A stretch of 64,000 nt of DNA from an uncultured Planctomycetota bacterium (GTDB lineage: Bacteria; Planctomycetota; Planctomycetia; Isosphaerales; Isosphaeraceae): positions 4,288,001-4,352,000 of the forward strand of contig CAVTTN010000002.1 in assembly GCA_963737655.1 (NCBI GenBank), in the 5' to 3' direction. The notes under the pieces are model-generated. The model saw only the letters and a program-made list of their open reading frames with translations, had not been told where the DNA came from and ran no database searches. A program made the position numbers and the translations under genes. This document shows positions 34-47,627 of this stretch, in pieces. Numbering within the stretch: position 1 is the first letter of the stretch; every line of letters begins with the position of its first letter.

Positions 34-123
34 GTACGTGTTTAGCGCCTCGAATCGCGGTTTTTGTAGGGTCCGCTATTGCGGACCCTACAAAAACCGC
101 CTTCTCACCCGCTAAACACGTAC
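34..123. mobile_element. 90-bp MITE with IS66-like ends carrying a GTAG-REP hairpin
   Basis: Perfect 14-bp TIR GTACGTGTTTAGCG / CGCTAAACACGTAC. The right end matches the IS66 right end at 20559-20572 (CGCTAAACACGAAC) at 13/14. Internal hairpin at 57-100 (GCGGTTTTTGTAGGGTCCGC-TATT-GCGGACCCTACAAAAACCGC). Confidence 0.75.
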
Positions 124-252
124 ATGAGAGTGGGGACGGGTAGTGCGGGGTTATCACCGATCCCGACTTCGTTGCGATTCGCCGTGAACGAATACGAGGC
201 CCGAACCTGTCTGGGTTATGGCCAAGCCTCCGGATCGAAGGGAGGGAGATGG

Positions 253-1407
253 GTGGCAACTGATTCCATCGACTGCGGCAGGATCGCCGAGGCGGCCGAC
301 CTGCCCGCGATCCTGGCGGCCGAGGGGATCGACCTCCGCAACGGGGTGGGATTTTGTCCGTGGCACGATAACACGAGGACCCCGGCCCGAAGCGTCTACC
401 TCCGGGACGGCCGATGGCGGTTCCAGTGCCACAACCCGGCGTGCGGGGTCTCCGGGACGGCGATCGACTGGATCATGCTTCGCGATAACGTGACGGCCCC
501 CGAGGCGGCCCGGAAGCTCGACCCGGCCCTGGCGCCGGCCAAGACGCCCCGGCCATCGAAAAGGACCGCCCCTCCGTCCTCGCCGATGGCGCCGAAAGAG
601 GAGCCCGCCCGCAAGCCGGGCGTGGCGGAGACGTCGGATGAGTGGGAGCTCGAGGCGGCCCGGCTCATCGAACGGGCGGGGGAGGCGCTCTGGCGGCCGG
701 AGGGCCAGGACGCCCTGGGCTGGCTCCGCTGGCGCGGCCTGGACGACGCAACCATCAGGCGGTTCCGGCTCGGATACGTCGCCGACTGGACCCAGACGCG
801 ACCGCTGGCCTGCCTCGACGACGGGAAGGGTCCCGAGCCGATCCGGGCGCCTCGCGGGGTGAGCTTTCCCTGGCTCGGCCTTGCCTCTCACTACGGCCGA
901 CGCGATCCCGAGGACCCGGGGGACGGCGACGCGGTCTTCGTCGGCTGCAACGTCCGGCGCCTGATGCCCGATGTCCGCGAGGCCCTCCCCAAGAAGGTCG
1001 GCAAGTGCATGGCCTTCGCGGGATCGACGCGGGGTTACGCCTACCCTTGCCCGGACCTCGTCCCGTCGCAATCCGTCCTGCCGGCCCTGATCCTGGAAGG
1101 CGAGATCGACCGCCTGCTCGCGGTCCAGGAGGCCAACTGGCTCGTCCACGCCCTGACGCTCGGCGGGTCGAAACAGGCCCCGCATCCCTCGGCCCTCGCG
1201 GTGCTCGACGCTTGCGATCACCGGCTGATCGCCACCGATCACGATGCCCCGGTCCAGGAGGCCGCGAAGCGTCTCGCGGCGATGGCCCCGGCCAAGGCCC
1301 GTCGCCTCTACCTCCCCCACGGCAAGGACGTCGGCGAGTTCGTCCAGGCCGGCGGCGACCTGGCCGGATGGCTGGAATCCGAGCTCGCCCGCCTCGGCCT
1401 GTCCTGA
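253..1407 (+). CDS. DnaG-like primase of mobile-element type (CHC2 zinc finger + Toprim)
   Basis: CPWHD...FQCHNPAC zinc finger; FRLGY motif; Toprim motifs ILEGEID, TDHD and GKDVGE. GTG start at 253 follows the SD GGAGGGAG. Confidence 0.8.
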   Translation: MATDSIDCGRIAEAADLPAILAAEGIDLRNGVGFCPWHDNTRTPARSVYLRDGRWRFQCHNPACGVSGTAIDWIMLRDNVTAPEAARKLDPALAPAKTPRPSKRTAPPSSPMAPKEEPARKPGVAETSDEWELEAARLIERAGEALWRPEGQDALGWLRWRGLDDATIRRFRLGYVADWTQTRPLACLDDGKGPEPIRAPRGVSFPWLGLASHYGRRDPEDPGDGDAVFVGCNVRRLMPDVREALPKKVGKCMAFAGSTRGYAYPCPDLVPSQSVLPALILEGEIDRLLAVQEANWLVHALTLGGSKQAPHPSALAVLDACDHRLIATDHDAPVQEAAKRLAAMAPAKARRLYLPHGKDVGEFVQAGGDLAGWLESELARLGLS

Positions 1408-1515
1408 TCGATCGATCGATCGCGGGGCCGAAAACCCGACGTCGCCGGCCCGGACCTCCCGGCGCCGATGTTCGACCGTTCCTTATTCTCGTACATTCAT
1501 CAATGGATATCGCAA

Positions 1516-2273
1516 TGAGATTGCGCGAACAGGTCGCCGCGCTCACGGCGTCGGTGGACAAGCTCTCGCGGGCGGTGAAGCCGGGCCCGGGCGGCGGGTC
1601 GTCGGCCCCCGGGCCGTCCGGCGGCCCGCCCGGGTCGTCGCCGTCCTGGCGGTCGGCCCTGGCCCCGGTCCTCAAGGCGGTCCAGGCTCAGTCGCCGGGG
1701 TTGACCGCGTCGTTCTCGGGGCTGGCGGCCTCCCTCAAGGCGGCCCGGGCGACCGGTCCGGCGATCCGAGCGTCGGCGGGTTCCTCGTCGCTGGCGAGCC
1801 TGCCTCGGTCCTCGTCGTCCGCCCGTTCGCCGGACCTCACGACGCTTTTCCGACCGTCGCGGGACCGCTCCCGGGATGCCTCGGTCGCGTCGCCGTTCAC
1901 GCCCCCGCCCCCGCCCCCGGCCGACGCGCCGCCCCCCCGGGTCCATCCCTCGGCCCCCCCGTCCTCGCTCGATGCGGTCCGCCGCTCGGCGATGGCCTGG
2001 CGAGCGTCTCCGTCGATGGCGGCAGGCTCGCCGGGCGGGCCGCGATGGCCCGGGACTCGGGCCGGATCGAGTTCGGCCCCCGGGATGAACCCCGGCGACT
2101 CGGGCGGGATGGCCTCGCGGTTCGCCCGGTCGCTCAAGACTCGGCCAGGCGTTCGAGGCGTTCCAGGCAGCGGATGCGGGCCTCCCCGGGGAGTCCGTCG
2201 AGCCAGGCGACGATCGGGGGCCGCTCCTCGCCGCTCTCCTGGTAGAGGACGACATCGACTTGGGGCATGGTGA
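1516..2273 (+). CDS. Hypothetical low-complexity (Pro/Ser/Gly) protein, probably truncated or chimeric near 2135
   Basis: ATG after an AT-rich leader (MRLREQVAALTASVDKLSRAV...). The 3' part runs antisense through the toxin fragment. Confidence 0.3.
2134..2268 (-). pseudogene. N-terminal fragment of a RelE/ParE (HigB/Gp49-like) toxin
   Basis: MPQVDVVLYQESGEERPPIVAWLDGLPGEARIRCLERLERLAES* matches the N-terminus pattern of this family. It stops before the usual GxxELR segment, and no antitoxin follows. Confidence 0.7.
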
Positions 2274-2327
2274 TGACCGGTCCATCCTCGGTGCGGACCG
2301 ACGGCCCGTCTCGCCGACCCGGTCCCG

Positions 2328-2355
2328 ATTGTATCGCAATATTGCGATCAGGCAA
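2328..2355 (-). promoter_or_regulatory. Sigma70-type promoter with palindromic operator for the toxin fragment
   Basis: Minus strand TTGCCT-16 bp-TACAAT. The perfect palindrome ATCGCAATATTGCGAT (2333-2348) fills the spacer. Confidence 0.6.
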
Positions 2356-2734
2356 GGAGAGTTCTTGCACCTCCCCTGCCCCGTGCTCGGCGTGACGCGG
2401 GCCGCTGGCGGTACACGCCCCACGACCTGCCCCCCCGGGACACGGTCCACTTCTTTTCCCGCCGGTGACGGCTCGGTCAGGACCTGCTGACCACGCCCAA
2501 CGGCCGGGCGAGCCGACGGATGCTGCTGGAGAAGGTTCCGCCGCAGGGATTACACTGGGCGACCGTCGAGAATTTGCAAGGGCTGTCGGATCGTCGGGTC
2601 CATGGCCTATTTCATCGTTTATGGTTATAGTTTCTGCTGGTCCGTGCGAACGCCGACCGAACGGGATGTCGAAGGACGGCTTCGCACAACGGCGTTGAGA
2701 CACCACCGATCATCCTTACGAGAGGAATACACGG

Positions 2735-4087
2735 GTGTCAGACGAGGTGGAGCGCCAACTCGCCCTGCTGAAGCCTGGCGATCACATCTGCCCTATTTAC
2801 AGCAGCATCGTGGAGCAGATGGCCGTCGCGGTGCCCTTCGTGAGAGACGGGTTGAGCCGAGGAGATCGTTGTATCTACGTTTCGGACGGCGCCGTCAAGG
2901 GATTCGTCGAAGCCCTCGATGCCGCCGGGATCGATGTCGCTCGCGAGTGCGATCGGGGGCGGTTGCTGCTCCTGACCAAGAGCGATTCGTACCTCCTCGG
3001 GGGTACCTTCGCTCCCGAGGCGATGATCGGCTTTCTGTGCCAGGCGGAGGCCCAGGCGCTCGCGGACGGATTGTCGGGCTTGCGGTTCGCCGGCGAGATG
3101 ACCTGGGCCCTTGGTCCGGAGCCCGGTTACGCCCGGTTGATCGAGTACGAGGCACTGCTCAACCGCTTCGTGGCAGGAGGCCGGTCGGTGATCCTCTGCC
3201 AGTACGACCGCTCTCGCTTCGACCCGTCCTGCATTCATGACGTCCTGCTGACCCACCCGCTGGTCGTTCTTGGCACCCTGGTCTGCCCGAACCCCTACTA
3301 CGAGCCGCCGGAATTGGTCTTATCCCCCGACCCCGAGGCTTCCGCCGAGTTCAAGGCGAAGCGGGTCGACTGGTGGATTGCGCAACTCAAGCGGGCGCGG
3401 GACGATTCCCAAGAACGCGAGAACATGTTCATGAATTTGCAGGCTCTTTCCCGACAGTTGATCGGAGTCCAGGAGTCCGAGCGTCGCCACCTGGCTCGCG
3501 AGCTTCATGATGAGATCGGCCAGGCGTTGACGGGCGTCAGATTGCTCGTGCAATCCAGGGAGGAGCTGCCGACGGGCGAGGTCAAGGCGAGGTTCGAGCA
3601 GGTGCGAGGCATCGTCGACGAGCTCCTGGAGCGGATCCGGCGGCTCTCGTTCGACCTGCGACCCTCCGCCCTCGACCAACTCGGGCTCTTACCCGCGCTG
3701 CTGGCGCTCTTCGAGCGGTTCACGAGCCAGACCGGGATTCTGGTCCATTTCAAGCACGAAGGGATCGAGGGGCGATTCGCGCCTGAAGTGGAGACGACCG
3801 CCTACCGGATCGCGCAAGAATCGTTGACGAACGTTGCCCGCCATGCCGGGGTGCGCGACGCGACGGTCCGGGTCTGGGCGACCGCGGATACGCTGAACGT
3901 CCAGATCGAGGATCGGGGATGCGGATTCGATCCGGAGGTCGCCCTGGCGGCGCCAACATCCATCGGCCTCGCCGGCATGCGGGAACGCGTCACGCTGCTG
4001 GGCGGCCACCTGAGCATCGAATCCGGCCGGGGATCCGGGACACAATTGACGGCCCACTTACCACTGATCGGCATAAATGTTGAGTAG
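2735..4087 (+). CDS. MEDS-domain sensor histidine kinase (HisKA_3/NarX-like)
   Basis: GDHICPIY...GLRFAGEMTW...LCQYD MEDS motifs; ERRHLARELHDEIGQAL H-box; QESLTNVARHA, DRGCGFD and GLAGMRER. Confidence 0.92.
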   Translation: MSDEVERQLALLKPGDHICPIYSSIVEQMAVAVPFVRDGLSRGDRCIYVSDGAVKGFVEALDAAGIDVARECDRGRLLLLTKSDSYLLGGTFAPEAMIGFLCQAEAQALADGLSGLRFAGEMTWALGPEPGYARLIEYEALLNRFVAGGRSVILCQYDRSRFDPSCIHDVLLTHPLVVLGTLVCPNPYYEPPELVLSPDPEASAEFKAKRVDWWIAQLKRARDDSQERENMFMNLQALSRQLIGVQESERRHLARELHDEIGQALTGVRLLVQSREELPTGEVKARFEQVRGIVDELLERIRRLSFDLRPSALDQLGLLPALLALFERFTSQTGILVHFKHEGIEGRFAPEVETTAYRIAQESLTNVARHAGVRDATVRVWATADTLNVQIEDRGCGFDPEVALAAPTSIGLAGMRERVTLLGGHLSIESGRGSGTQLTAHLPLIGINVE

Positions 4088-4091
4088 ATAA

Positions 4092-4745
4092 ATGGCAATA
4101 CAAATTGTCTTGGTCGACGATCATCCCGTCGTGCGCCGCGGGATGCAGGCCCTCCTGGAGGCCGAGCCGGACTTCTCCATCGTGGGCGAGGCGGGCGACG
4201 GGCTGGAGGCGGTCCGACTCGTCGAACGCTTGCACCCCGACGTGCTGGTCCTCGACCTGATGTTGCCGAGCCTGAGCGGCCTGGAAGCCATCCGGACCAT
4301 TCGCCAACGCTCGCCGCAGACTCGCGTCGTGGTCCTCTCGATGCACAACATCAGCGCGTTCGTGGCGTCGGCGCTCAAGGACGGTGCCCTGGGATACGTC
4401 CTCAAGGGGAGCGAGGAGGAGAACCTCGTCCACGCGGTCCGAGAGGCCGCCGCCGGGAGGCGCTTCCTGAGCCCGCCGGTTACGGAGCGCGCCATCGACG
4501 CCTACATCGAGCAATCCAGGGCGGTCCGGATCGACCTTCACGAGACGCTCACGGATCGAGAGCGCGAAGTGCTGCAACTGTCGGCCGAGGGGAAGGCCGG
4601 GTCGGAAGTCGCCTCGAAGCTCCACATCAGCCATCGCACGGTCGAAAACCACCGCGCAAGCCTGATGCGGAAGCTCGGGCTCAAGAATCAGACCGACTTG
4701 GTCCTCTATGCCCTGCGACGCGGGATCATCCCCCTGGAGGAGTAA
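4092..4745 (+). CDS. NarL/LuxR-family response regulator
   Basis: LVDDHPVVR, VLDLMLP and GYVLK receiver motifs; LTDREREVL...TVENHRASLMRKL HTH. Confidence 0.95.
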   Translation: MAIQIVLVDDHPVVRRGMQALLEAEPDFSIVGEAGDGLEAVRLVERLHPDVLVLDLMLPSLSGLEAIRTIRQRSPQTRVVVLSMHNISAFVASALKDGALGYVLKGSEEENLVHAVREAAAGRRFLSPPVTERAIDAYIEQSRAVRIDLHETLTDREREVLQLSAEGKAGSEVASKLHISHRTVENHRASLMRKLGLKNQTDLVLYALRRGIIPLEE

Positions 4746-5139
4746 GGGCCGCGGGAGGGACTCGCCGACCGGAGGTGACGGGCCCCGAACGTCCCGGTCG
4801 CCGCCGAGAGTCGTGAGGATTTGGCCCGGAATCCAGGTATTTGCCCGGATGGTCGATCCCGAGAACGCCCCTACCATAGAACGAGCCTGAGCCGTTGGGC
4901 GCGAGCCACGGTGGCGAGGGCTCAAAGGTCGACGCCCGATTCGGTCGAGCCCGGCGCGTCCCTCGCGTCGCGGCGAGACCGGCGAGCGACGGGCGGCGAG
5001 CCGAGCGACGATGAGGTCGCGAGGCCAAGGCACGATGACCATGCCCGCCGTCCGTAGCTCGGGGATCTCACCTCGGTGAGTGTCGGCCCAGGAGACCTGG
5101 ACACCGCACCGCGACAGACAACTCTCGGAATCCCTCACG

Positions 5140-5415
5140 ATGAATTCGCCCCCGACCGACCAGCCGGCCCCACGTCCCCTCGACGGGATTCGCGACGAAG
5201 GAGATCGACCGTTGCTCGGCCTGCTCCTCGCATTGTACGCCACCCTCGACCGCCATCGGGATGGCAATCCGCCAGCCAACCCGGACGTCTACCAGCCCGA
5301 GCAGTGGGAGGACCACGAGAACATCTACCTCGAGTTTGTCATCCCCGATCTGTTCGATCGGGATGTCGATATCTCCACCCAAAACGGCAGGACCCTGATC
5401 CGCTCCGGGAGATGA
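5140..5415 (+). CDS. Small hypothetical protein with a partial Hsp20-like C-terminal motif
   Basis: ORF with GC-biased third codon positions. EDHENIYLEFVIPDLFDRDVDISTQNGRTLIR resembles alpha-crystallin beta-strands. Confidence 0.45.
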   Translation: MNSPPTDQPAPRPLDGIRDEGDRPLLGLLLALYATLDRHRDGNPPANPDVYQPEQWEDHENIYLEFVIPDLFDRDVDISTQNGRTLIRSGR

Positions 5416-5449
5416 GCGATCCCGGCCGAGGAGTACACGAGGACGAGCA

Positions 5450-7752: not shown

Positions 7753-7833
7753 CGATCGACAGGGGCCGATTTCGGAGAGCGGGCTAAACCGGATGCACCC
7801 TTGGGGCCGGCCCGCAGCACGAGGACGCCAACC

Positions 7834-8086
7834 GGGGTCACGCCTCGGAATGGACGAAATCGCACGTTAAGGGACTCCGAGGGGGGTGGCGGAGAACCCC
7901 TCCGCAAGAATCCCTTGAAACCCGGCGATTCCGGGCGTTTCCGCCCCATCTCAAGGCGTGGCGGGAATCTTTAATTTCCCGCCACGCCCACTCGTCGGGC
8001 GAAGACGCAAAGCCGGTTTCCTGTTCGGGTTCAATCCCGGCAAAGCGGCTTGGCGTACGATTTTTTCCGTTCCGAGGCGTGACCCC
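7834..8086. mobile_element. Tn3-family miniature element (TIME-like), 253 bp
   Basis: 38-bp IRs GGGGTCACGCCTCGGAATGGACGAAATCGCACGTTAAG and GGGGTCACGCCTCGGAACGGAAAAAATCGTACGCCAAG (32/38). Internal hairpin at 7955-7988. No 5-bp TSD. Confidence 0.85.
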
Positions 8087-8139
8087 AGCTTGCCAGGACG
8101 CGGAGTTGCGAGACGGAGATTCCGCGACCGTGGGCGGAC

Positions 8140-8697
8140 TCATTTCACGCTGCTGGGATGCTTCGCGTCCCCGGTCGGGGCCGAGCCGCCCGCCGGGGTG
8201 TCGATGATGCGTGCCGTCGGGGGGACGGCCAGGTGGTCGATGACCCGCTCGACGCCCCGGGTGTCGCGGACCAAGCCCACGGCCGTGTCCTTCTGGGCGG
8301 GGCTGGAGACGAGCCCTCGCAGGACGGCCGTGCCGTCCTCCTCGACCTCGACGACGATGCCCGTGGCGTCGAGCCGCTTGTCCTGGCAGAGGCGGGTCTC
8401 GATCTGCTGGCCCAGCCCCAGATTCCGCACCGAGGATGAGCCCTGCGAGGAGGAGTCGCGGACCGAAGCCGCCGTGTAGCGGAACCCTTTGAGGAGCGTG
8501 CGATAGGCCCCACGCACGCTGCCGAAGAACCCCGGAGCCTCTCCATATCGCTCGGTCCCGCCCGCGGCCCAGCCCGCCAGGAGCAAACCGACGATCAGTC
8601 CGGCGAAGGAGCATCGCGTCCGGGCGAAGGGCCACTTCCTGGGCCGGTCGGGGTTCGCCTGTCCCGCATCCCGACCGTCCCGCTGGGGGGTGCTCAT
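8140..8697 (-). CDS. BON-domain membrane/periplasmic protein
   Basis: Hydrophobic N-terminal segment, then IETRLCQDKRLDATGIVVEVEEDGTAVLRGLV...GVERVIDHL (BON pattern). Confidence 0.85.
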   Translation of the reverse strand: MSTPQRDGRDAGQANPDRPRKWPFARTRCSFAGLIVGLLLAGWAAGGTERYGEAPGFFGSVRGAYRTLLKGFRYTAASVRDSSSQGSSSVRNLGLGQQIETRLCQDKRLDATGIVVEVEEDGTAVLRGLVSSPAQKDTAVGLVRDTRGVERVIDHLAVPPTARIIDTPAGGSAPTGDAKHPSSVK

Positions 8698-9261: not shown

Positions 9262-9290
9262 GGCGCCTCGAAGGATCGACAGGCCCCGCC

Positions 9291-9897: not shown

Positions 9898-9914
9898 TCC
9901 CGAAGCCCTCCGGG

Positions 9915-13033: not shown

Positions 13034-14478
13034 CTTAGTGCTACTCCGTTAGCTGCTTTGGAGGGTCTGCGGACCGGCAGTATGGGCAATCATGCCGGCA
13101 GATCGGCACCAGCAGCCTCTGGAGCCCGCGACGGATCGCCGGCACCGTGATCACCGGCTCGGGATCCCCTTTTTTCCCGGCCGGGCCGGGGCACGCTTCG
13201 CTCGCAGCCGCTCCAACGCCAGGAAGCCGTAGGCCGGCATCACCGGGCAGGCGTGGTGGTGGAACCCCCGCCACGAGCGGCCCTCGAAGTGGTCCAGCCC
13301 GAGTCCCTCCTTCATCTGCTGGTCGCCCTGCTCGACCGGCCAGCGGCTCCGCCACAGGCGGACCGCCGCGATCCGGGACGTGCCCGCCGGCAGGTTGCTG
13401 AAGGCGTATTTGATCTGGCCGTCGGCCTGCTCCTCGATCAGGAGCCAGATCGGCCCGGCCCCGGCGCACTCCCCCGTGGCCCAGCCCCCGGCAGGCCGGA
13501 CCCGCAGCCAGGAGAAGCGGCCTGACATCGGGCCCTTGGTCCCCTCGCGCCACGTCACCTTGGGCCGGGGCGTCTGCCCGGCCAACTCCTTGAGGCTGAC
13601 CGGCCGCGGCGACTCGTCGGTGAGCCGGCGTCGCTTCTGCGGGCGGCCGCCGGCGGCGGCCTTCGGCTCGACCCAGCGCGGCTCCTCGGCGAAGACGACC
13701 ATCTCGTCGGTGACGCCGACGACGTCGTGCAGGCCCCGCTCGGCCAGGCCATCGCGGAACGGCCCCGAGACCCCGTAGCCGGAGTCCGCCACGACGACCT
13801 GCCCCGGCAGGCCCTCGGCGCGGGCCTGGTCGAGCAACTCCAACGCGATCTGCCCCTTGCTCCGGGGGCGGCGGGCCTCCTCCGGGACGCCGGCCCGGTC
13901 GAGGCGATCCGGCTCGGCGAGCCACGACTCGGGCAGGTAGAGCCGCATGTTCAGCGGGTAGTGCCCCTCCGGGGCGACGTCGTGCACCGAGACGGCGCAC
14001 TGGCAGTTGGCCGTCTCGCCCAGGGCGCCGCAGTACTGCCGCTGAACGCCGACGGAGTGCTTGCCCTGCTTGGGGAAGGTCGTGTCGTCGATGACGAAGA
14101 TCCCCGCCGGGTCGGCGAATGCCTCGGCCATCCGCGCGCGGTAGCGTCGCCACACGGCCCGGTCGTCCCAGGTGCTCTGGCTGACGAACTGCTGGAGGGC
14201 CTGGTCGGGGTCGGCGACGGTGAGGCCGGCGGGCAGCGGGACGGCGCGGGCCATCGGCTCGATGCTCTTGCGGTCGGCGTCCTGGAGCAGGCCGCGGAGG
14301 TAGACGCCGCACCACTGGCCCTGGCGGGGCCGGTTGAAGTCGTCGCGGAATCCGGCGGCGTAGTCGCCGAGCCGGTCGAGCACGTCGGGGTCGAGTTCGG
14401 GGGTGTAGGTCCGGTTCGTACTATCGGTACGAACCGGACCGGCGAACCGTTCGTAGGATCTAACGGAGTAGCACTAAG
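13034..14478 (-). mobile_element. IS701-family insertion sequence
   Basis: Perfect 19-bp IR CTTAGTGCTACTCCGTTAG at 13034-13052 and 14460-14478 (includes the target TA bases), flanking a DDE transposase. Confidence 0.92.
13151..14419 (-). CDS. IS701-family transposase (start codon appears as ACG; -1 frame extension to 13041)
   Basis: RKSIEPMA, VIDDTTFPKQGKHSVGVQRQYCG, VVADSGYG, RWPVEQ..LGLDHFEGRSW. Confidence 0.9.
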   Translation of the reverse strand, partial: TNRTYTPELDPDVLDRLGDYAAGFRDDFNRPRQGQWCGVYLRGLLQDADRKSIEPMARAVPLPAGLTVADPDQALQQFVSQSTWDDRAVWRRYRARMAEAFADPAGIFVIDDTTFPKQGKHSVGVQRQYCGALGETANCQCAVSVHDVAPEGHYPLNMRLYLPESWLAEPDRLDRAGVPEEARRPRSKGQIALELLDQARAEGLPGQVVVADSGYGVSGPFRDGLAERGLHDVVGVTDEMVVFAEEPRWVEPKAAAGGRPQKRRRLTDESPRPVSLKELAGQTPRPKVTWREGTKGPMSGRFSWLRVRPAGGWATGECAGAGPIWLLIEEQADGQIKYAFSNLPAGTSRIAAVRLWRSRWPVEQGDQQMKEGLGLDHFEGRSWRGFHHHACPVMPAYGFLALERLRAKRAPARPGKKGIPSR

Positions 14479-19017: not shown

Positions 19018-20564
19018 ATGACTGCCTCTCAGAGGCTATCCGGGAAGGAGATTTCCGACCGCGACGAGGGGTAAAGTAGGTCCGACTTCAGTCGGGCCTA
19101 CCCAAAGAACTCCGGGATGTAGGCCCGACTGAAGTCGGACCTACTCATCCTTCGATGTTGGAAGCCCCTTTCCGGATAGCCTCTCAGCGGGCGATCCTCG
19201 AGCAGCTCCGGCAAGAGAACCAGGTGCTCCGCGCCCGAGTCGTCGAGTTGGAGCAGACGGTCCGCGAGGCCCTCGACCGGAACCGGCAGCCCCAGGAGAA
19301 GCTCGATGAGCAGGCGCGTGCGGCGGCCCGCCAGGCCGCCCCGTCCCGCCGCCGCGAGTCCAGGAAGGTCCCTGACGGGTCCAAGAAGCGGCCCGGGCGA
19401 CCCGAGGGCCATCTCGGGGTTCACCGCCCCGTCCCTGACCACGTCGACGACGATGCCGAGGTGCCGCTGGCCGGCTGCCCCGCCTGCGGCGGCCCGGTGG
19501 CCGCCGTGGAGCCGATCGAGCAGTTCATCGAAGAGATCCCCCCGATCCGGCCCCGGGTCACGCGCCTGGTCACCTACCGGGGCGTCTGCCCGGCCTGCGG
19601 CGAGGTCCACAGCTCCCACCCCTTGCAGACCTCGACGGCCACCGGCGCCGCCAGGGCCCAGCTCGGCCCCCGCGCCCATGCCCTGGCGGCCGCCCTGAAC
19701 AAGCAGTTCGGGCTGACCATGCGCAAGGCCTGCCGCGTGCTCCGGCTCCTCGCGGGCCTGAGGCTCAGCCCCGGGGGCCTGGCCCAGGCCGTCCGGCGCA
19801 CCGCCGCGAAGGTCCTCCCGGCCTTCGACGGCCTGGTCGCCGAGGTCCGCGCCGCCGCCGCCGTGTTCGCCGACGAGACGAGCTGGTACGTCGGGGCCCC
19901 GGGGTACTGGCTGTGGACCTTCACGACCGCCGACGCCACGGTCTACCACGTGGACCGGAGCCGCGGCCGGCGGGTAGTGCTGGACATGCTCGGCGAGGAG
20001 TTCGCCGGCGTCCTGGTCAGCGACTGCCTGGCCAGCTACGAGAACCTGCCGTACCGGACGCACAAGTGCCTCGCCCACCACCAGCGGGCGATCGCCGAGG
20101 CGCGGCGCGGCCGGACACGAGCGACCCGGGGCTCCCTGGACGAGTGGAAGCTGCTGTTCACGATGGTCAACGCGCCGTGGAAGCACCGCGAGGCATTGGG
20201 CGAAGGGGAGTTCGCGCGGCAGCGGGGGGCGCTGGAGTCGTGGCTGGACCGGCTGCTGGCCGAGCCGGGGGACGAATCGATCCGGAAGCGGATCGGCAAG
20301 CGTCGCGGGGTGGTGCTGGGCTGCCTGGACGACCCCGCGGCGGAGCCGACGAACAATCGCGCGGAGCGGTCGCTGCGCGACCCCGGGGTGATCGCGCGGA
20401 AGGTCTCGTGCGGGAACAAGACCGAGGCGGGGAAGATCGCGTGGGAGCGACTCGTCAGCCTGGCGATGACCTGCCAGAAGCGAGGTCATGACTTCGTCTC
20501 CTGGCTGGCCGGTTGCTTGCCCCTGGACGCCTCAGCGGTCCCCGTCCCCGCCCCTACCCGCTAA
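19018..20564 (+). CDS. IS66-family transposase, 5' end interrupted by a MITE (alternative start 19155)
   Basis: Coiled-coil N-terminus, KKRPGRPEGH, CPACG zinc finger, ADETSW, LVSDCL, PTNNRAERSLR. The IS end lies at 20559-20572. Confidence 0.9.
19032..19183. mobile_element. 152-bp MITE (IS5-like ends, TCA TSD) carrying a REP doublet
   Basis: TIR GAGGCTATCCGGRAAGG (16/17); TSD TCA at 19029-19031 and 19184-19186. Removing it restores ATG ACT GCC TCT CAG CGG (MTASQRAILE). Confidence 0.88.
19076..19144. repeat. GTAG-type REP doublet (REPIN-like)
   Basis: GTAGGTCCGACTTCAGTCGGGCCTAC and its exact inverse. A second copy of the core lies at about 47417-47484. Confidence 0.85.
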
Positions 20565-20572
20565 ACACGAAC

Positions 20573-29073: not shown

Positions 29074-30059
29074 GAGTGGCGGCTCGCATCGGGAAAAGGG
29101 CCCGGACCTTCCCAGCGTATCACCGGGCCGGTCGACTTGCCAGGGGGAGACAATCGCGGGAAGGGTCGATCCATTGTTGGCGTCCGCAGGCACGCGGAGC
29201 GTGCAAGACGGCATTCCCACGCCGAGCGTGGGGACGAGGGAGTTCCGACGTCACCACCAATCCGGACTCATGAGCCAGGCGGACCCTGCGAAATTCATGG
29301 GCTTTTCTACCGAGCAATCCGACACCATTCCCCCCAGACCCGGGACCGCGAGGCGCCCGCGACGCTTCGCGTTACTCACGGATCATCGCGAGCGAGGCCC
29401 TCGACGATCACCAAATCCGTCGGCATCGCGCCTCCCATGATTCGAGTCATCATGTCAAGAAACTAAAGCTCGGTAATTCCTGGATGAATCGCGAGTCGCA
29501 GGGGCATGCGCGCTTTTTCGCGAAATCGGGGCCGATCGGGCCGCGGATCGATCCGCCGCATCTTGTTTCGGAGACAGAAATTGCGAATTTCAAAAACAAA
29601 TATGAAAACACGAGCGCTCATGCTCGCGCACGAGTCGATGCGCACGCGAATCCGGCCTGATTCCCGCCCTTTTCGCGATTTCCGGACGAAATGTGTAGTC
29701 AACTTCCCGGCGTCGAGGAATTGCGAATCTCTGATGAGCTTAAAAGTTGATCGCAAGAACACATTTTCCGAGCATTTCGCCTGTCGAGAATCCGGCCGGG
29801 TCCGCATGAATCAAGAAATTGCGCCTACCTAAAATTTCCTTGTTTCCTTGCACGTCCCTTCATTCGTCAGGCCAGACCTTGCCTGCCCCGCACGGACGTT
29901 CAACGGACTCTCCTCGATCGGTCCCCGTCCACGAAGCGTTCGACGGATGTGCCTGCGTCTCCTTGCAAGGTCAAGGTCGATGCAGGCTGCCCCATCCCCC
30001 GATCGTCCCGCCGCGAGGGCCGGACCCTGGGGCGAGGGGGAGACGCCGTCGTCGCTCCG

Positions 30060-37652: not shown

Positions 37653-38067
37653 ACCGCCAAGACGCCAATGGCGGATTGAACCGCCAAGACGCGAAGTTCG
37701 CCAAGGAAGAGGGGAGAGGAGAGGAGAGGAGAGAACGAGAGAGGTTCAAGAGAAAGAGAGAGTCAAGAGAAAGACGCATTCAAGAGAAATTCAAGAGGAA
37801 AAACCTCGAAACCTTTTGGGATTTTCTCTCCTCATCTCCCTCTTCCTTGGCGATCTTGGCGTCTTGGCGGTTAATCTCCCGCACCCCGATTCGTAAGCAT
37901 GTCTTCGGTCAGGCTCGATCTGAAGACATGCTTACGAAGACGTAAGCATGCCACCCGACAAGAGAGATTCGAGAGGAAAACCTCGGATCCTTTTAGGATT
38001 TTCTCTCTTCCTCTCCCTCTTCCTTGGCGATCCTGGCGTCTTGGCGGTTAATCTCCCGCACCCCGAT
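37641..38067. repeat. Composite repeat region between convergent genes
   Basis: AACCGCCAAGACGC...CTTGGCGGTT inverted elements; 25-bp tandem duplication (37641, 37668); ~108-bp direct repeat (37783-37890, 37961-38067); partial GGGTGGCATG-type REP at 37891-37956. Confidence 0.85.
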
Positions 38068-39373: not shown

Positions 39374-39444
39374 GTCGGGGGCCGTCCTCGGAGAGAAGAG
39401 AGCGGAGAGGGGCGCGGGGCGGTCGGGTCTCGGCGGGTTTTCCC

Positions 39445-40698: not shown

Positions 40699-40800
40699 GG
40701 GCGGGACTCCGAAGGGCGATCGGGACGCTCGGCGGCCCTATCCTAGCGAGATGGGGACTCGGTTTCACCTGCTTCGACCCGGGGAACGCCCACGAGGACC

Positions 40801-40876
40801 GGGTGGCATGCTCGCGTCTTCGTGAGCATGTCCGGCGTGCGGAAGACATGCTCACGAAGCCGTGAGCAGGCCACCC
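40801..40876. repeat. REP-like palindrome (GGGTGGCATG family)
   Basis: GGGTGGCATGCTCGCGTCTTCGTGAGCATGTC...GACATGCTCACGAAGCCGTGAGCAGGCCACCC; homologous to 37891-37956. Confidence 0.8.
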
Positions 40877-40881
40877 GAACG

Positions 40882-42708
40882 TCACTTCGTCGGCATGGCG
40901 ATCCGGGGGTCGGGCTCGACGAGCTTGTGGGTCCGATCGACGTCGGCATGCTCGATCACGGTATCGGGGCCTCCGGCGGGCCATTTCACGACGATCTTGA
41001 CCTCTCTCGCCGCGCCGACGCCGATCAGGAGCCTCGGGTCGTTGGTCGATTCCATGCTGCCCCCGCCCTTCTGCTGGCGGGTGATCGTCTGGCCCTCGGC
41101 GACGACCTGGACCCGGGCGCCGATGGCGTCTCGGTTGCTCCGGGTGCCCCGGAGTTCCAGGCGGACCCAATGATTCGGGGTCTTCGATCGGTTCAGGAGG
41201 ACCCCGGGGGGCTTGTCCTTGTGATTGACCACGATGTCGGCCAGGCCGTCGTCGTCGAGGTCGCCGAACGCGGCCCCCCGGCCGACGTGGCCGGTCTCCA
41301 TGTAAGCCCCCGCGCCCTTCGCCACCGAGGCGAACTTCCGGCCCCCGCCGGCGCCTCCGCCGATGTTCCGGAACAACAGCGGAGGCTCGTTGTAGGGGAG
41401 GTTCGGGTTGCCGACGAGGTGGTGATTGTCGTCCACGTGGCCGTTGGTGATGAAGACGTCGGGCCAGCCGTCGTTGTCGAAATCGACCAGCCCGCAGCCC
41501 CACTTGACCCACTTCTTGCTCTCGGCCATCAGGCCGACGAACGCCGATTGCTCCAGGAACTGGCTGTCGCCGAGGTTCATATAATAGGACGTGGTCTCTT
41601 CCATGAAATTGGTGCGGATGATCTCCGGCTTGCCGTCGCCGTCGGCGTCCTCGGCATCGACGCCCATCCCCGATTGGGCCTGGCCGTTGTCGTCGAAGGC
41701 GGCGCCGTTCTCGAGAGTATCGTCGCGGAACGTGCCGTCCCCCTTGTTGATGAACGTGAATGCCGGGCACTGGTCGTTGGCGACATACAGGTCGATCTTG
41801 CCGTCGCCGTTGAGGTCGGTGGCGACCACGCCGAAGCCGTGGCCGTCGGTCCGGCCGACCCCGGCCGAGACCGTCACGTCGGTGAAGTGGGGGACGCCGT
41901 CCTTCGTGACGTCGTTGCGATAGAGGATGTGGCGGACGGTGGTGATCGTCCGGGGGGAGCAATACTGGCGGACCTCCGCCTTCTCGTCGGGGCACTTGCG
42001 CAGGCCGTCGGTCTTGATGTCCCAGGAGCCGTAATTGGCGATGTAGACGTCGAGGTCGCCGTCGTTGTCGTAGTCCAGGACGGCCCCCCCGGACGACCAG
42101 TTCGGCGAGGCGATGCCGGCCTTCACGCTCTCGTCGCGGAACGTGCCGTCGCCGTTGTTCAGATAGAGGACGTTCGACCCGAGGTTGCAGAGGATCAGGT
42201 CGGTATCGCCGTCATTGTCCAGGTCGGCGGCGATCACGCCGTGGCAGAACCCCCGGAACCCCACCCCGGCCTTCTCGGTGACGTCCTCGAACTTCCCGCC
42301 GCCCAGGTTCCGGTACAGGCGATTGGAATTCGCGGGCTTTTCCGCCAGGGGGAGCAGGTTGCACGAGGCGAAGTACAGATCCATCTTGCCGTCGCGGTCA
42401 TAATCCAGAAACGCCGCGCCCGAGCCGTTGGCCGAGGGGAAATGGCGGGCCGGGGTCATCCCCGAGACCTGGACGAAGTCGATCCCGGCCGATTTCGCGA
42501 CCTCCTCGAACCGGAACGGGCTGGCGACCGATTCGGCCGGACCGGCCGGAGGGGAGACGGCCGGAGCCGCCGAGGCCGAGGAGGGCGGAGGGGCCGTCGA
42601 GGCCGAGGGCGAGGTGGCCGAAGGCGGCGGCGTTTCGGAACAACCCACCATCAGGACCAGGAGCCCGAGGGCGGCCGACGCGCGACCGCTCGCAAGATGG
42701 CGACGCAT
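40882..42708 (-). CDS. CRTAC1/ASPIC-UnbV family lipoprotein with FG-GAP repeats
   Basis: Lipobox LMVGC; repeated DYDxDGxxD motifs; GRGAAFGDLDDDG; SNRDAIGARV. Confidence 0.92.
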   Translation of the reverse strand: MRRHLASGRASAALGLLVLMVGCSETPPPSATSPSASTAPPPSSASAAPAVSPPAGPAESVASPFRFEEVAKSAGIDFVQVSGMTPARHFPSANGSGAAFLDYDRDGKMDLYFASCNLLPLAEKPANSNRLYRNLGGGKFEDVTEKAGVGFRGFCHGVIAADLDNDGDTDLILCNLGSNVLYLNNGDGTFRDESVKAGIASPNWSSGGAVLDYDNDGDLDVYIANYGSWDIKTDGLRKCPDEKAEVRQYCSPRTITTVRHILYRNDVTKDGVPHFTDVTVSAGVGRTDGHGFGVVATDLNGDGKIDLYVANDQCPAFTFINKGDGTFRDDTLENGAAFDDNGQAQSGMGVDAEDADGDGKPEIIRTNFMEETTSYYMNLGDSQFLEQSAFVGLMAESKKWVKWGCGLVDFDNDGWPDVFITNGHVDDNHHLVGNPNLPYNEPPLLFRNIGGGAGGGRKFASVAKGAGAYMETGHVGRGAAFGDLDDDGLADIVVNHKDKPPGVLLNRSKTPNHWVRLELRGTRSNRDAIGARVQVVAEGQTITRQQKGGGSMESTNDPRLLIGVGAAREVKIVVKWPAGGPDTVIEHADVDRTHKLVEPDPRIAMPTK

Positions 42709-42966
42709 TGGGGAAACCCCGCGAGAAAAAGAAGAAATGGTCGGCCCGGACGGAAGGACGAGGATGGATGCGGGCCGATTTCGATCGTACCATGAAGGAC
42801 GAGGCCTGTCCCGACCCCCGTCTCGGGGGATTCTCGGCTCGAGACTGAAGATCCGCCCGGCGGATGCCGATGAACGAGGATACGGCCTCTCGATTTCCCC
42901 GAAGAATCCCGGGCGGCCGGCGAACCACCGAGTAGGCACTCCAGGAACGGCATCGCGGAGGGTGGG

Positions 42967-43725
42967 ATGGGGCTGGATATCGCTCTGGGCGTCGTGATCC
43001 TGGCGTCCGCCATCCGGGGCTGGTTCAAGGGATTCCTGCGGCAAGCCATCGTCCTGGCGGCCCTGGTCGGCTGCGTCTACGCGGCCGACCCGCTGCGCGA
43101 CCTCGCGCGACCGTACGCCGCGAAGAACTTCCCGTCGATCGCCGCGCCGGTGCTCGACCGCCTGCTCTGGTGGTCGGCGGCGGTGATCTCCTACTTCCTC
43201 GTCTCGGGGATCGGCCTGTCGATCCTCAAGTCTTCCCGCAAGAGGACTTACGGCGACCCCGAGCCGAACCGGAGCGACCAGGGGGCCGGCTTCACCCTCG
43301 GGGCCCTCAAGGGGGCGATCGTCGCCGCGTTCCTCGCCTCCGGGATCGCCCAGTACGCTCCGCCGTTCCTCAAGGGCAACCACTTCGCCGAGGAGCAGAC
43401 CGAGAGGTCCTACGCCCTGAAGTGGTCGGACCGATACCGGCCGGCCGAGCTCCTCTGGAACTCCCCGCCCGTCCGGTCGTTCGTGGCCAGGGTGAGAACC
43501 CGGGGGATGTGGGGTAGCCAGGAAACTCAGGAAGAACGCACCGAGACGGCCAAAATCGAACGCGACGCGTCCGAAAAAAAGGCCCGCCCCGCCTCCACCG
43601 AAGTCCCCCGGACCGCCTCGAACCGCACGAAGCCGCTCCAGATCCCCAGCCTCGACCCGGATGACCCCGAGTTCGCCCGGAAGCTCGAACGGGAGCTCAG
43701 GCGTGAGGGCCTGGAGCCTCGCTAG
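42967..43725 (+). CDS. CvpA (colicin V production) family membrane protein
   Basis: LDIALGVVILASAIRGWFKGFLRQ...DQGAGFTLGALKG. Confidence 0.85.
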   Translation: MGLDIALGVVILASAIRGWFKGFLRQAIVLAALVGCVYAADPLRDLARPYAAKNFPSIAAPVLDRLLWWSAAVISYFLVSGIGLSILKSSRKRTYGDPEPNRSDQGAGFTLGALKGAIVAAFLASGIAQYAPPFLKGNHFAEEQTERSYALKWSDRYRPAELLWNSPPVRSFVARVRTRGMWGSQETQEERTETAKIERDASEKKARPASTEVPRTASNRTKPLQIPSLDPDDPEFARKLERELRREGLEPR

Positions 43726-43816
43726 GCCATGGCCCGGGACTGACGTTGACCCCTTCGCCGCTCCGGGCGACACTTCGGCCCTTGAAGTCGTCCCCCGGCG
43801 CGGAGAGTGATCGAGG

Positions 43817-45742
43817 ATGGACCCTCGCGAACGTTTCGGCCGGTGGCCGCGCCCCTGGATGCTGCTCGTGGCCCTGGGCCTGTATCTGACCTGTCGCGGC
43901 TATCACAGCCGGGATGGCGACCAGGCGTATCGGCTCCCGCTGCTCCTCCACCAGCAAGACCCCTCGGTCTTCGCGGCCGACCCGTTCGTCGAGGCCCTCG
44001 GCCGGTTCAACCCCCATCGCGGCTACCTCGCGATCCTCGACGTGGCGAGCCGCCCTCTCGGGCTCTCCGCGGGCCTCTTCGGCCTGTTCGCGCTCACGTT
44101 TTTCGGCACCTGCCTTGGCTTCGATCGCCTGGCCCGGTCGGCCTGGCCCGAGGGGGGCGGCCGGGTCGGGGTCGTCGCCGTGGGATTGGTCCTGGCGACG
44201 AAGGCCGGCAACGTCGGCACGAATCACCTGTTCGAGTCCATGCTCCTGGATCGCTTGATGGCGCTGGCCCTGGGATGGCTGGCGATCTCGGCGGCCGTGA
44301 ATCGAGCGGATCGGCCGATCCTCCCCGCCTTGTGGATCGGGATGGCCGGATTCGTCCATCCGTCGCTCGGCCTCCAGCTCGGCGGGCTCCTCGCGGCCGG
44401 ATGGATCGGCTGGGCCGCGATCGGGACGCGATCGGGCGTGACGATCCGGTCGGCCTTGACCGGTTGCCTGGCGATCGCGGTAGCGCTTTCGCCCACGGTC
44501 CTGATGGCGGCGAGGGCCGGGTCGGTCCTCCTGAATGGCCTCCCCCCGGAGGACTATCTTCGGATCGCCGGTTACGTGCAAAGTCCTCAGCACATGATCC
44601 CTCACCTCTGGCGGATGCCCCAGTGGCTCGCGTTTTGCGCCTTCCCGGCGCTCGCGATCCTTTCGGCGTTCCGGATCGGCGAGGGGGATCGATCCGAAAC
44701 CCCGGCGAACGCCTCTCCCCAGAGGCTCCGGGTGGTTGTCCTCTTGATGGCCGCGATGGCGATCCTCGCCGGGTCGTGGGTGGCGATCGAGCCGCTTCGG
44801 AGCGTGAAAATCACCGTCTTCCAGCCGTTCCGGCTCGCCACGGCGGCCCGGGGCCTGGCGATCGTCCTGCTCTCGGGACGAGTCGTCCGGCTCTGGCGGA
44901 GGGGCGACCCGGCCGGACGGGTCCGCGCGGCCCTGATCGTCGCCGGGCTCTCGGGCGACTGGTCGATGGTCATCGCCGGAGGGGTGGAGATCGCCGTTTC
45001 GTTCGCCGGACGGTTCGACCGCAGGGCGGAACCGGCGGTCCTGGGGCTGGCCCTGGTCGCGGGCCTGATCTTCCTCGCCCGCCACGACACCGAATCGGGC
45101 CATGTTCGCCTGATCGCGGCCACGGGTGCTGGACTGGCAAGCTCAATCATCCGAATCCCGCTCGCCCGGTTCGAGCCGTCGCGGAGGAGGCTGGCGGTCC
45201 TCACCCTGGCGGCCTGGATCGTGCCGGTCCTGGCGGCGGCCTGGCCGAATTCCGGCCTGGCGGGGCATTGCCGGTTCGGCGAGACGCCGACCGACGACGT
45301 CGAGAGGCTGGCGGTCTGGTGCCGCGAACACACGCCGAGATCGGCCCGATTCGTGACCCCTCCGGGCCCGAAAACGTTCCGCCTCTGGTCGCGTCGCGAG
45401 GTCGCCTTCAACCGCGCCGCCAGTCCCTATCACGCCTCGGGCCTGGCCGACTGGGCCCGACGGTTCCGCGACCACGTCGGCTTCGAAGGAACCCTCGCCG
45501 GGTTCGCCACCGCGTACCTGCAAGACCGGCAAGCCCTCGAACACCGATTCGATTCGATGACCGACGCCGAAAAGGCCGGGCTCGCCCGCCGTCAAGGGGC
45601 CGAATTCGTCCTCGCCGCCCGTCCCCAAGACGGCACGTCCGCAAACGGGCCGCTACGCTGCCTACGGGTCTCCGGCCGCTACGCAATCTACGAGCTTCGT
45701 TCGGGATCGGTCGCGGGGAAGACCGGAACGATCCGCAGATGA
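43817..45742 (+). CDS. Polytopic membrane protein (DUF6798-like)
   Basis: Many TM segments; DQAYRLP, WCREHTP..ARFVTPPG, FRLWSRR. Confidence 0.7.
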   Translation: MDPRERFGRWPRPWMLLVALGLYLTCRGYHSRDGDQAYRLPLLLHQQDPSVFAADPFVEALGRFNPHRGYLAILDVASRPLGLSAGLFGLFALTFFGTCLGFDRLARSAWPEGGGRVGVVAVGLVLATKAGNVGTNHLFESMLLDRLMALALGWLAISAAVNRADRPILPALWIGMAGFVHPSLGLQLGGLLAAGWIGWAAIGTRSGVTIRSALTGCLAIAVALSPTVLMAARAGSVLLNGLPPEDYLRIAGYVQSPQHMIPHLWRMPQWLAFCAFPALAILSAFRIGEGDRSETPANASPQRLRVVVLLMAAMAILAGSWVAIEPLRSVKITVFQPFRLATAARGLAIVLLSGRVVRLWRRGDPAGRVRAALIVAGLSGDWSMVIAGGVEIAVSFAGRFDRRAEPAVLGLALVAGLIFLARHDTESGHVRLIAATGAGLASSIIRIPLARFEPSRRRLAVLTLAAWIVPVLAAAWPNSGLAGHCRFGETPTDDVERLAVWCREHTPRSARFVTPPGPKTFRLWSRREVAFNRAASPYHASGLADWARRFRDHVGFEGTLAGFATAYLQDRQALEHRFDSMTDAEKAGLARRQGAEFVLAARPQDGTSANGPLRCLRVSGRYAIYELRSGSVAGKTGTIRR

Positions 45743-46012
45743 CGCAGATGGACGCAGAGGACGGAGGAGTGATGCAGATTAATGCGAGGATGCATGATCG
45801 CGGAGTGACGCGATTGGGGTCAAAAACCAGGGCCTTCGGCAACCGCAGATGACGCTGATTATTGATTTTGAAATCATGTATTCTTAATCAGCGTCATCTG
45901 CGGTTGCCGACGGCCCTCCTTGATTCCACGGTCGAGATCGAAGCGCGTAACTCCCAGGAAATCTAGAAATCCATCTTATCTGCGCCAATCTGCGTCATCT
46001 GCGGGTCGTTCC
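45725..46012. repeat. Nested inverted repeats of the CCGCAGATGACGCAGAT family
   Basis: Outer IR GGAACGATCCGCAGATGACGCAGAT...ATCTGCGTCATCTGCGGGTCGTTCC; inner IR at 45829-45917; AT-rich spacers. Confidence 0.85.
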
Positions 46013-46034
46013 GCCTGTCATCGGCGGATCGTTC

Positions 46035-47288
46035 TCACGATGCGAGGACGACGTCGGCCGGGACGGGATAATCCTCGGCGAATTCGCGGATCTCGCCTCG
46101 GATGCGCTCGGAGACGGCCGAATCCTCGGGGGCCTTGAGGGCCTCGATGATCCAGGAGGCGACGCGGCGGAATTCGTCCTCGCGGAGTCCGCGAGTGGTC
46201 AGCGCGGGTGTGCCCATGCGGACGCCGCTGGGGTCGAGCGGCTTCCTCTTGTCGAACGGGATCAGATTCTTGTTCACGGTGATCCCGGCGCGACCCAGGG
46301 CGGCCTCGGCGACCTTGCCGGTCAGGCCCCGGGAGGTCATGTCGATCAGGATCAGGTGATTGTCGGTGCCTCCCGAGATGATCCGGAAGCCGGCCCGGGT
46401 GAGCTCCTCGCCCAGGGTCTTCGCGTTGGCGACGACCTGCGCCGCATAGGCCGCGAACTCGGGCCGGAGGGCCTCGCCGAAGCAGACGGCCTTGCCGGCG
46501 ATCACGTGTTCGAGGGGGCCGCCCTGCAAACCCGGGAACACGGCCGAGTCGATCTTCTTCGCCCAGGCTTCCTTGCACATGGTGATCCCTCCGCGAGGTC
46601 CGCGAAGGGTCTTGTGCGTGGTCGTGGTCACGAAATCGGCCAGGGGGACGGGACTCGGGTGCTGCCCCCCGGCCACCAGGCCCGCGATGTGCGCCATGTC
46701 CACGAACAGCAGGGCGCCGATTCCCCGGGCGATCTCGGCCATCCGTTCGAAGTCGATGATCCGAGAGTACGCGCTGGCGCCGGCGAGGATCAGCTTCGGC
46801 TTGTGCTCGTGGGCCAGGGCGGCCATCCGGTCGTAATCGATCCGCTCGGTCTCGGGGTTCAGGCCATAGCCGATGATGTTGTACCACCGGCCCGAGAAAT
46901 TGAGCTTCATCCCGTGGGTCAGATGGCCGCCGTGGGCGAGGTCCATCGCCAGGACCGTGTCGCCGATCTCCAGGGCCGCGTAATAAACGGCCTGGTTCGC
47001 CGTGGCGCCGGAGTGGGGCTGGACGTTCACGTGATCGGCGCCGAAGAGCGTCCGGGCGCGGGTGATGGCGAGCGTCTCGGAGGTATCGACGTGCTCGCAG
47101 CCGCCATAATAGCGGCGGCCCGGCAGGCCCTCGGCGTACTTGTTCGTGAGCACGGAGCCCACGGCGTCCATGATGGCCCGGCTGGTGTAGTTCTCCGAGG
47201 CGATGAGTTCCAGGTCGTCTCGTTGCCGCTCTTCCTCGGCGGCGATGGCGGCGAAGACCTCGGGGTCGGAGAGCTTCAGGGCGTCCAT
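46035..47288 (-). CDS. glyA: Serine hydroxymethyltransferase
   Basis: [33 protein letters not shown]. Confidence 0.98.
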
Positions 47289-47378
47289 GAGTCGGAAGTC
47301 CTTCGTCCAGGCCGCTTCGGGGCGAATGTCGCGGCGATGGGGTGATTATAGCCGTTCGATCGGCCGATCGCCTCCCAT

Positions 47379-47521
47379 TGCCCTGGAGAAAACCCCCTTG
47401 AGTATGAGGAAAACGAGTCGGTCCGACTTCAGTCGGGCCTACAAAATAAGACCTTCTTGTAGGCCCGACTGAAGTCGGACCGACTCGTTTTCTTCTCCAT
47501 CACCGGGTTTTCTCAAGAGCA
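47379..47521. mobile_element. 143-bp MITE carrying the same REP doublet as 19076-19144
   Basis: Imperfect TIR TGCCCTGGAGAAAACCC / GGGTTTTCTCAAGAGCA; 9-bp direct repeat GCCTCCCAT at 47370-47378 and 47522-47530. Confidence 0.8.
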
Positions 47522-47627
47522 GCCTCCCATCCTTTTCCCGTGGGTCGAAGCCACGGAGGCTGGCTCCGGGCGTGTTCAGCCGGAGCCAGTCCCCGTTATC
47601 TTTTCCCGAGGGCCAGAGCAAACGGGT

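Follow-up and report, generated by a model that had tools for sequence, protein, structure and literature searches.

REP doublets enclosed in insertion sequence ends, and their unequal decay, in an uncultured Isosphaeraceae bacterium

Three miniature elements with REP hairpins

We analysed a 64,000-nucleotide stretch of DNA (hereafter the window) from an uncultured bacterium of the family Isosphaeraceae, corresponding to positions 4288001-4352000 of contig C2 in the genome that we call G000 (7.63-Mb assembly, 68.7% GC, 87.7% complete). The window harbours three small elements, E1, E2 and E3, in which hairpins of the repetitive extragenic palindromic (REP) type lie between terminal inverted repeats (TIRs) like those of insertion sequences (ISs). 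A sequence-only reading of the window had described them as REPs travelling inside three unrelated MITEs (miniature transposable elements bounded by inverted repeats). Hereafter, R1 denotes the REP common to E1 and E2, R2 that of E3, and shells A, B and C the TIRs of the E2, E1 and E3 types, respectively, the last being IS66-like.

E1 (19032..19183, 152 bp) was correctly delimited in that reading. It is a shell-B MITE with IS5-family ends, the TIR GAGGCTATCCGG and a 3-bp target site duplication (TSD), TCA, on both sides (19029..19031 and 19184..19186, + strand). Its R1 doublet (19076..19144) has outward GTAG feet and a 17-bp spacer, with core copies at 19079-19101 (+) and 19119-19141 (-). A second copy, 100% identical and likewise bordered by the TCA duplication, occurs at G000:C2:234302-234453, where its flanks differ and it lies at a gene's stop codon. 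In the window, E1 interrupts an IS66 transposase gene (19018..20564, + strand; NF033517 above cut-off) whose left end is decayed. The insertion point corresponds to codons 4-5, with an in-frame stop from the ATG at 19018 and a downstream frame at 19155-20564; the right IS66 end (20559..20572, - strand) has the TIR of E3 with 1 mismatch in 14. At seven of the nine IS66 homologue loci compared, the gene start is uninterrupted and located 72 bp inside an E3-like TIR, and these homologues provide the empty-site form for E1.

E2 (47379..47521, 143 bp), a shell-A MITE with IS5-like ends, lies between the genes for pyrimidine-nucleoside phosphorylase and serine hydroxymethyltransferase (SHMT). Its TIR, TGCYCTKGAGAAAACCC, and the exact 9-bp flanking repeat GCCTCCCAT (47370..47378 and 47522..47530, + strand) are as first described. 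Its R1 doublet (47417..47484; cores at 47420-47442 (+) and 47459-47481 (-), 16-bp spacer) had been assigned GTAG tags, and both in fact read GTCG.

E3 (34..123, 90 bp) is an IS66-type MITE with the TIR GTACGTGTTTAGCG at 34-47 and 110-123, which matches IS66 ends in relatives. The coordinates, the IS66-type ends and the different GTAG hairpin (R2; 66..91, a GTAG foot at each end) all stood up to scrutiny. However, E3 is a single-hairpin, central-deletion form of a 134-bp doublet element and has no TSD. Beside it, an open frame (79-1407) with weak CHC2 zinc finger and Toprim matches (DnaG-like) is possibly a mobile-element remnant.

Whole-element folding gave z-scores of -11.9 to -13.6 against 200 shuffles for E1-E3 (E1 folded as 19032-19181), and the R1 REP stem-loop gave z = -3.4. 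An Rfam search of the window yielded no matches. Both E1 and E2 combine TIRs with TSDs as MITEs do, and E3 has the TIRs without the TSD. At 90-152 bp, all are too short for a transposase, and their shells recur at unrelated sites, shell A at 81 loci, shell B at 8 and shell C at 14 or more.

Genome-wide census of REPs and shells

A first census with a 23-base core (up to 3 mismatches) returned 185 R1 matches at 101 loci, 80 of which are head-out pairs. A second one, with a 20-base core and TIR thresholds that random positions pass in ~0.1% (A-type) and ~0.04% (B-type) of cases, returned 186 R1 units (one duplicate call) at 99 loci, 81 with shell A, 8 with shell B and 10 with neither. By eye, the latter ten comprise two REPs flanking a gene for a REP-associated tyrosine transposase (RAYT), six eroded shells or single arms, and two bare-looking doublets. 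The possibility that the REP is mostly unshelled and that each shell is single-copy thus did not hold, as 89 of 99 R1 loci are shelled and each shell recurs, A at 81 loci, B at 8 and C in 14 E3-type doublets. The foot tags of the 186 units read GTAG in 132 cases, GTCG in 37, GTGG in 4 and otherwise in 13; GTMG is described as a tolerated variant in the available text of PMC3733652.

R1 has the features of REP doublets forming hairpins (REPINs), namely an imperfect palindrome with GTAG-type feet found in many inverted doublets with variable spacers. Copies placed by a RAYT would lack TIRs and long TSDs, and only two R1 doublets look plainly bare. Because 89 of the 99 loci have a TIR shell, we do not class these elements as plain REPINs.

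Both A-type TIRs were identified around 57 of 79 R1 doublets, and in 30 of these 57 the 9-bp TSD is exact or has a single mismatch. Moving the ends by 1-4 bp leaves no more than 1 of 57 such repeats, and cross-pairing the flanks yields 0.9%. All shell-A copies are distinct (nearest-neighbour identity 86% in the median, 93% at most), and in nearly every one the doublet lies 38-41 bp from the TIR. The target reads AAAA-N2-[9 bp]-N2-TTTT. A GGGGWC/GGTGTC repeat of the TIRYT type, a motif taken from the parts of PMC3733652 at hand, is present in the flanks of 25 of 57 copies, against 6.6% at random positions and 6 of 57 at 100 bp further out. In 6 of 18 copies without TSD, the 9-bp flanks are inverted, which suggests deletion between two inverted target repeats.

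Full-size shell-C doublets with both TIRs number 14. Their 8-bp TSD is exact in three, has 1 mismatch in two and 2 in two, and is worse in seven. The shell-C TIR also ends the window's own IS66 and its homologues. Hairpins are frequent targets of shell C; R1 arms are among them, and there the 8-bp TSDs are exact. Among 31 R2 doublets, 12 have both TIRs, 7 have one and 12 have none, two of the last looking eroded.

Full-length partners of the shells

For all three shells, relatives in a comparison set of 121 genomes of the family contain full-length ISs that share both the TIR and the length of the TSD. The shell-A TIR pattern is present in 20 of these genomes, and the 30 loci listed include 15 distinct ISs of 966-980 bp in 10 genomes. 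Their TIRs match at 17/17 positions, five have exact 9-bp TSDs and targets resembling those of the MITEs, two have near 9-bp TSDs, and several are frameshifted. The single partner protein scanned scored best on NF033579 (IS5 family), at 127.6 below the cut-off of 140, and its nearest plasmid relative (74.6%), on a Paludisphaera plasmid, is annotated as IS5 family.

The shell-B TIR pattern is present in 33 genomes. Among 49 loci examined, we identified six distinct partner ISs of 937-965 bp, five of which have an exact TNA duplication; both transposases scanned score above cut-off on NF033580 (IS5 family). The 9-bp and 3-bp TSD types would presumably correspond to the IS903 and IS1031 groups. 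The shell-C partner is an IS66 (NF033517 above cut-off) with GTA/GTT-C ends and an exact 8-bp TSD in three of six homologues with both ends. G000 itself holds only remnants or the interrupted copy of these partner ISs. As to the three MITEs being unrelated, the shells of E1 and E2 indeed share no TIR sequence, but the partner transposases of both score best as IS5 family.

The same REP in other shells, and other REPs in the same shells

R1 is present in 6 of the 121 genomes, where its shells differ. In G003, it is enclosed in a GGCTCATGA shell, with the TIR pair at 22 of 31 loci viewed and a recognisable 8-bp TSD in 10. In G064, which belongs to another genus, a TAGGAG shell was found at 26 of 35 loci, and 19 of the 24 with both cores have a 5-bp TSD with at most 1 mismatch. 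In G135, R1 is found in shell B. Seventeen metagenome stretches with R1 revealed further shells, including IS66-like ends. Full-length partners of the GGCTCATGA and TAGGAG shells were not found in the 17 loci viewed. A 720-bp TAGGAG-shell element that we considered as a gene carrier turned out to consist of repeats nested in one another.

Conversely, the GGCTCATGA, TAGGAG, A and B shells enclose other hairpin families in G000 and its relatives. In the window, positions 29257-29316 comprise a shell-A TIR, a 10-bp linker and half of an R2-type hairpin split by a GGCTCATGA-shell element, and thus represent shell A with another core. Rough clustering indicated that several groups of R4 (69 doublets) share upstream sequences resembling further IS-type shells, and that R3, R5, R7 and R9 mostly have no shared upstream shells. 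The similarity of spacers and linkers between shells, measured against base shuffles, reached z = 5.0 for linker B versus A and 0.9-3.5 for the others. As this likeness is modest and was gauged with base shuffles only, we do not use it as proof of a single ancestral unit.

Several insertions in G000 are nested. MITE stacks three deep, each element with its own TSD, are found at G000:C2:417670-417998, 2544402-2544794, 3427680-3427960 and 4224387-4224774, with shell C in the REP of shell D in a shell-A spacer, or D in C. At G000:C2:804621-805550, a TIRYT-type Y1 gene is followed by a repeat into which a shell-A element has inserted, its 9-bp TSD being exact.

A RAYT gene flanked by R1

The expected RAYT gene flanked by the shared REP is present in G000. 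One of seven Y1_Tnp loci, C2:4878651-4879181, lies between two perfect inverted R1 REPs, with no shell. Its open frame of 185 codons encodes DHVH, WQ and Y---NP motifs, a set of the type given as the class-2 signature in the accessible part of PMC6006769. It scores above cut-off on PF01797 and at 74.9 bits on NF047646, whose cut-off is 80; a PDB sequence search returned no matches. This protein is the candidate cognate enzyme of R1.

The same REP-RAYT-REP cassette, also without shell, is located at the same locus in G064, between fadB and fadA, with a protein 61% identical and identical REPs. In the congeners G001 and G002, fadB and fadA are adjacent, with no cassette there and no R1. RAYT homologues at E<=1e-15 were detected in 9 of the 121 genomes, and only that of G064 exceeds 50% identity. 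None of the 73 pattern matches from a RAYT-based search of genome contigs was confirmed. The fadB-fadA gap of G135 (contig C4, L208) contains a doublet of a different REP at the position of the RAYT cassette.

Unequal decay of the REP core and its shell

When shell-A elements were collected by TIR pair and TSD alone, both R1 cores were present in 41 of 41. In these elements, mismatches affect 10 of 1640 core sites (0.6%), 6.1% of TSD positions per copy, and 12.8% of TIR positions, a figure that disregards indels and is possibly somewhat too high. At the TSD rate, 100 core mismatches would be expected in the 1640 sites. Of the 26 elements with a decayed TSD, 19 keep two perfect cores, and the spacers between the REPs have diverged as much as the shells. 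A TSD cannot acquire changes before the element has inserted, and full-length ISs show no variation in the TIR, from which we infer that the core has been preserved since insertion. It is likely that R1 in shell A is maintained in place rather than passively carried, with about ten times fewer mutations than the insertion scars.

Joint changes of the foot tag in both arms affect 14 of the 67 doublets examined, against a mean of 3.4 and a maximum of 8 in 5000 shuffles, and mirrored changes outside the tag position number only 3 in the same 67. The both-arm tag variants are spread over six linker combinations. On a tree of the non-REP parts they do not cluster (11 changes for 11 rows, 10.3 when shuffled), although that tree is poorly resolved, with 90 columns, 6 of 54 branches firm and at least 5 changes forced. 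Unclustered both-arm changes on such a weakly resolved tree point to rewriting in place.

Origin and maintenance of the composites

Our preferred explanation, which we regard as probable, is that these composites consist of a REP doublet in IS ends, are spread in trans by DDE transposases (of two IS5-family types and IS66), and contain a RAYT-derived REP that is kept for recognition by the RAYT. A doublet made by a RAYT would have been placed between the ends of an IS or a small MITE, independently for each shell, and the cognate DDE enzyme would then multiply each composite. Two identical E1 copies at unrelated sites are an indirect sign of such movement in trans, as far as sequences can tell. 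After insertion, the shell would decay, and in the REP pair each arm would serve as template for the other, with either selection or overwriting by the RAYT keeping both at the RAYT-type sequence. A stronger version, which we put forward tentatively and hold to be rather less than even odds, is a two-enzyme cycle in which the DDE transposases of several IS families disperse the doublets and the resident RAYT rewrites both arms in place. If so, the uniformity of the REPs would reflect overwriting rather than recent copying, and, by the TSD clock, cores would change about ten times more slowly than neutral DNA. The sequence-only reading had proposed a two-tier selfish system. The shelled census, the partner ISs, the RAYT and the empty site of E1 agree with it, but the REP, as the best-kept part, does not behave as passive cargo. 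Either of the routes that it had suggested, REPs hitch-hiking on DDE-mobilised MITEs or the conversion of IS ends into MITEs by an inserting REP, may have built the composites.

A number of observations weigh against the preferred explanation. Relatives hold elements with these ends in which no REP doublet can be recognised (L068, L103, L108, L123 and L136), and because of them the REP cannot be required for MITE movement. G000, at its stated completeness, yielded no intact shell-A transposase (what is left is a remnant of 23 residues whose end lies in the TIR) and no intact shell-B transposase, the nearest protein being 47-50% identical with a different TIR. For E2, SHMT was located in five of five relatives, where the upstream DNA could not be aligned to give an empty site. 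Some TSD mismatches may stem from chimeric flanks, given the inverted flanks of 6 of the 18 copies without TSD, and the neglect of indels in the TIR counts and the poor resolution of the tree belong here as well. The contrast in decay is weak in G064, which has a RAYT (core 2.5% versus TSD 4% in 20 elements), and in G003 the corresponding values (core 0% versus TSD 3%) come from 10 elements chosen by their core. A search for sequencing runs listed none, and an assembly effect on the uniformity of the cores is conceivable. Moreover, G003 harbours ~35 R1 doublets, yet no close RAYT was found in its 77%-complete assembly, and R2 is near none of the seven Y1_Tnp/RAYT loci of G000.

The last two points are also in line with the best surviving alternative, in which DDE enzymes spread the elements, the RAYT is irrelevant now, and what preserves the core is host selection acting on the hairpin, through RNA or DNA structure or protein binding, together with arm-to-arm template switching. 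The near-perfect cores of G003 and the R2 family would then need no RAYT, the both-arm changes show that arm-to-arm copying occurs, and GTCG tags, which unpair the hairpin foot, are common (37 of 186 units). However, if the arms were merely copied from each other, mirrored changes should become fixed at the neutral rate, and there are only 3 outside the tag in 67 doublets. The REP is identical next to RAYT genes merely 61% alike, and the sole close RAYT homologue among the 121 genomes is in another REP-rich genome. We consider this alternative unlikely.

It is less probable still that old, empty MITEs were entered recently, one by one, by RAYT-moved doublets, so that the cores only look young. 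Near-identical cores in old shells would fit such a history, as would the relatedness of bare and shelled R2 spacers (best match 23/26, shuffle maximum 15). It is largely refuted already by the lack of empty shells among the 41 elements found independently of the core, by inter-REP spacers that have diverged as far as the shells, and by the fixed distance between doublet and TIR.

The least probable alternative, by a little, is that an IS once carried an entire REP-RAYT-REP cassette, of which the MITEs are internal deletions: the doublets are head-out like the REPs flanking the RAYT gene, and in G135 the fadB-fadA site is occupied by a doublet from another family, but both RAYT cassettes are bare of TIR and TSD, the full-length IS ends (60-75 nt viewed) contain no REP, and separate events would be needed for at least four shells.

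Relation to known REP and IS systems

Like the REPINs, or REP head-to-head (HH) dimers, and their RAYT (TnpA-REP) enzymes, as presented in the available parts of PMC3116915, PMC3337134, 10.1101/2021.07.10.451892, PMC8266576 and PMC6006769, the R1 doublets are GTAG-footed inverted pairs with a variable spacer and a hairpin fold, and the single-copy class-2 HUH protein (Y---NP) is flanked by its REP. Unlike plain REPINs, R1 copies are nearly all enclosed by IS ends and accompanied by TSDs of the DDE type. In the portions at hand of their preprint, Bertels and Rainey distinguish REPINs, duplicated by RAYTs, slow and long-lived, from MITEs, which are IS-parasitic and short-lived; here, in contrast, REPIN and MITE are one element.

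The closest precedent is in PMC3733652 (Di Nocera 2013), which reports longer conserved palindromes that have a REP dimer at their centre and are never empty. In the sections available, this anatomy is mentioned in passing as out of scope, and nothing is said of TSDs, an IS family, an autonomous partner, more than one shell or parts that decay at different rates. Bacterial MITEs of the IS5 and IS66 families (PMC3184786, in the parts accessible) similarly have the 14-17-bp TIRs of full-length ISs and family-typical TSDs, are non-coding and occur in many copies. Unlike in those, the likeness of our elements to IS ends stops, by eye, approximately at the TIR, and the interior, a REP doublet of an HUH system, is better preserved than the TIR. 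ISs that target REPs (IS1397, IS621, IS1594 and ISPpu9; accessible text of PMC3184786 and PMC12288879) resemble shell C and an IS66 here, which insert into REP hairpins with 8-bp TSDs, and the preference of shell A for TIRYT-type repeats is comparable. The nesting is nevertheless reversed in E1-E3, where the REP is inside the IS ends.

REPINs, RAYTs, MITEs and the targeting of REPs by ISs are already known, and the link to IS-derived shells and TSDs and the unequal decay are what appears to be new. In a search that left out most subscription papers, and in the available parts of the sources, we found no account that connects REP doublets with shells derived from ISs or with TSDs, or that describes one REP in more than one shell or unequal decay; the accessible parts of PMC4853749 and PMC2817692 hold nothing on REP doublets in IS-derived shells. 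The novelty supposed in the sequence-only reading would extend to the IS families and TSDs, whereas the anatomy itself has the passing precedent of PMC3733652, in its available text.

The mechanism of REP dissemination is called poorly understood in the part of PMC8266576 at hand. The REPORTH preprint (10.1101/2024.10.14.618302), in its accessible text, states that estimates of duplication rates presuppose neutral mutation of REPINs, and it suggests in-place overwriting of REPINs by RAYTs as a possibility. In the present elements, the TSD provides an independent date for each copy, and measured against this clock the core is much too well preserved. The questions of neutrality and overwriting raised in that preprint thereby become testable. 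The elements unite two classes treated as separate and are ready substrates, with known ends, partner transposases and one candidate RAYT.

Further repeats and ISs in the window and in G000

More long inverted-repeat families of the REP/MITE type are found in the window at 7827-8093, 37679-38067, 40800-40877, 45724-46013 and 53797-53883. Many such families occur in G000, the largest at ~136 loci. A 1476-bp DDE IS with 12-bp TSDs is inserted in the most abundant REP family of G000 at C2:3532412-3533887 and C2:3939597-3941073, and a third copy, at G000:C2:896841, has a different target. Lastly, the window harbours a 1437-bp IS with a DDE_Tnp_1 match and long TIRs (13038-14474), a second copy of which is located at G000:C2:17725-19161.

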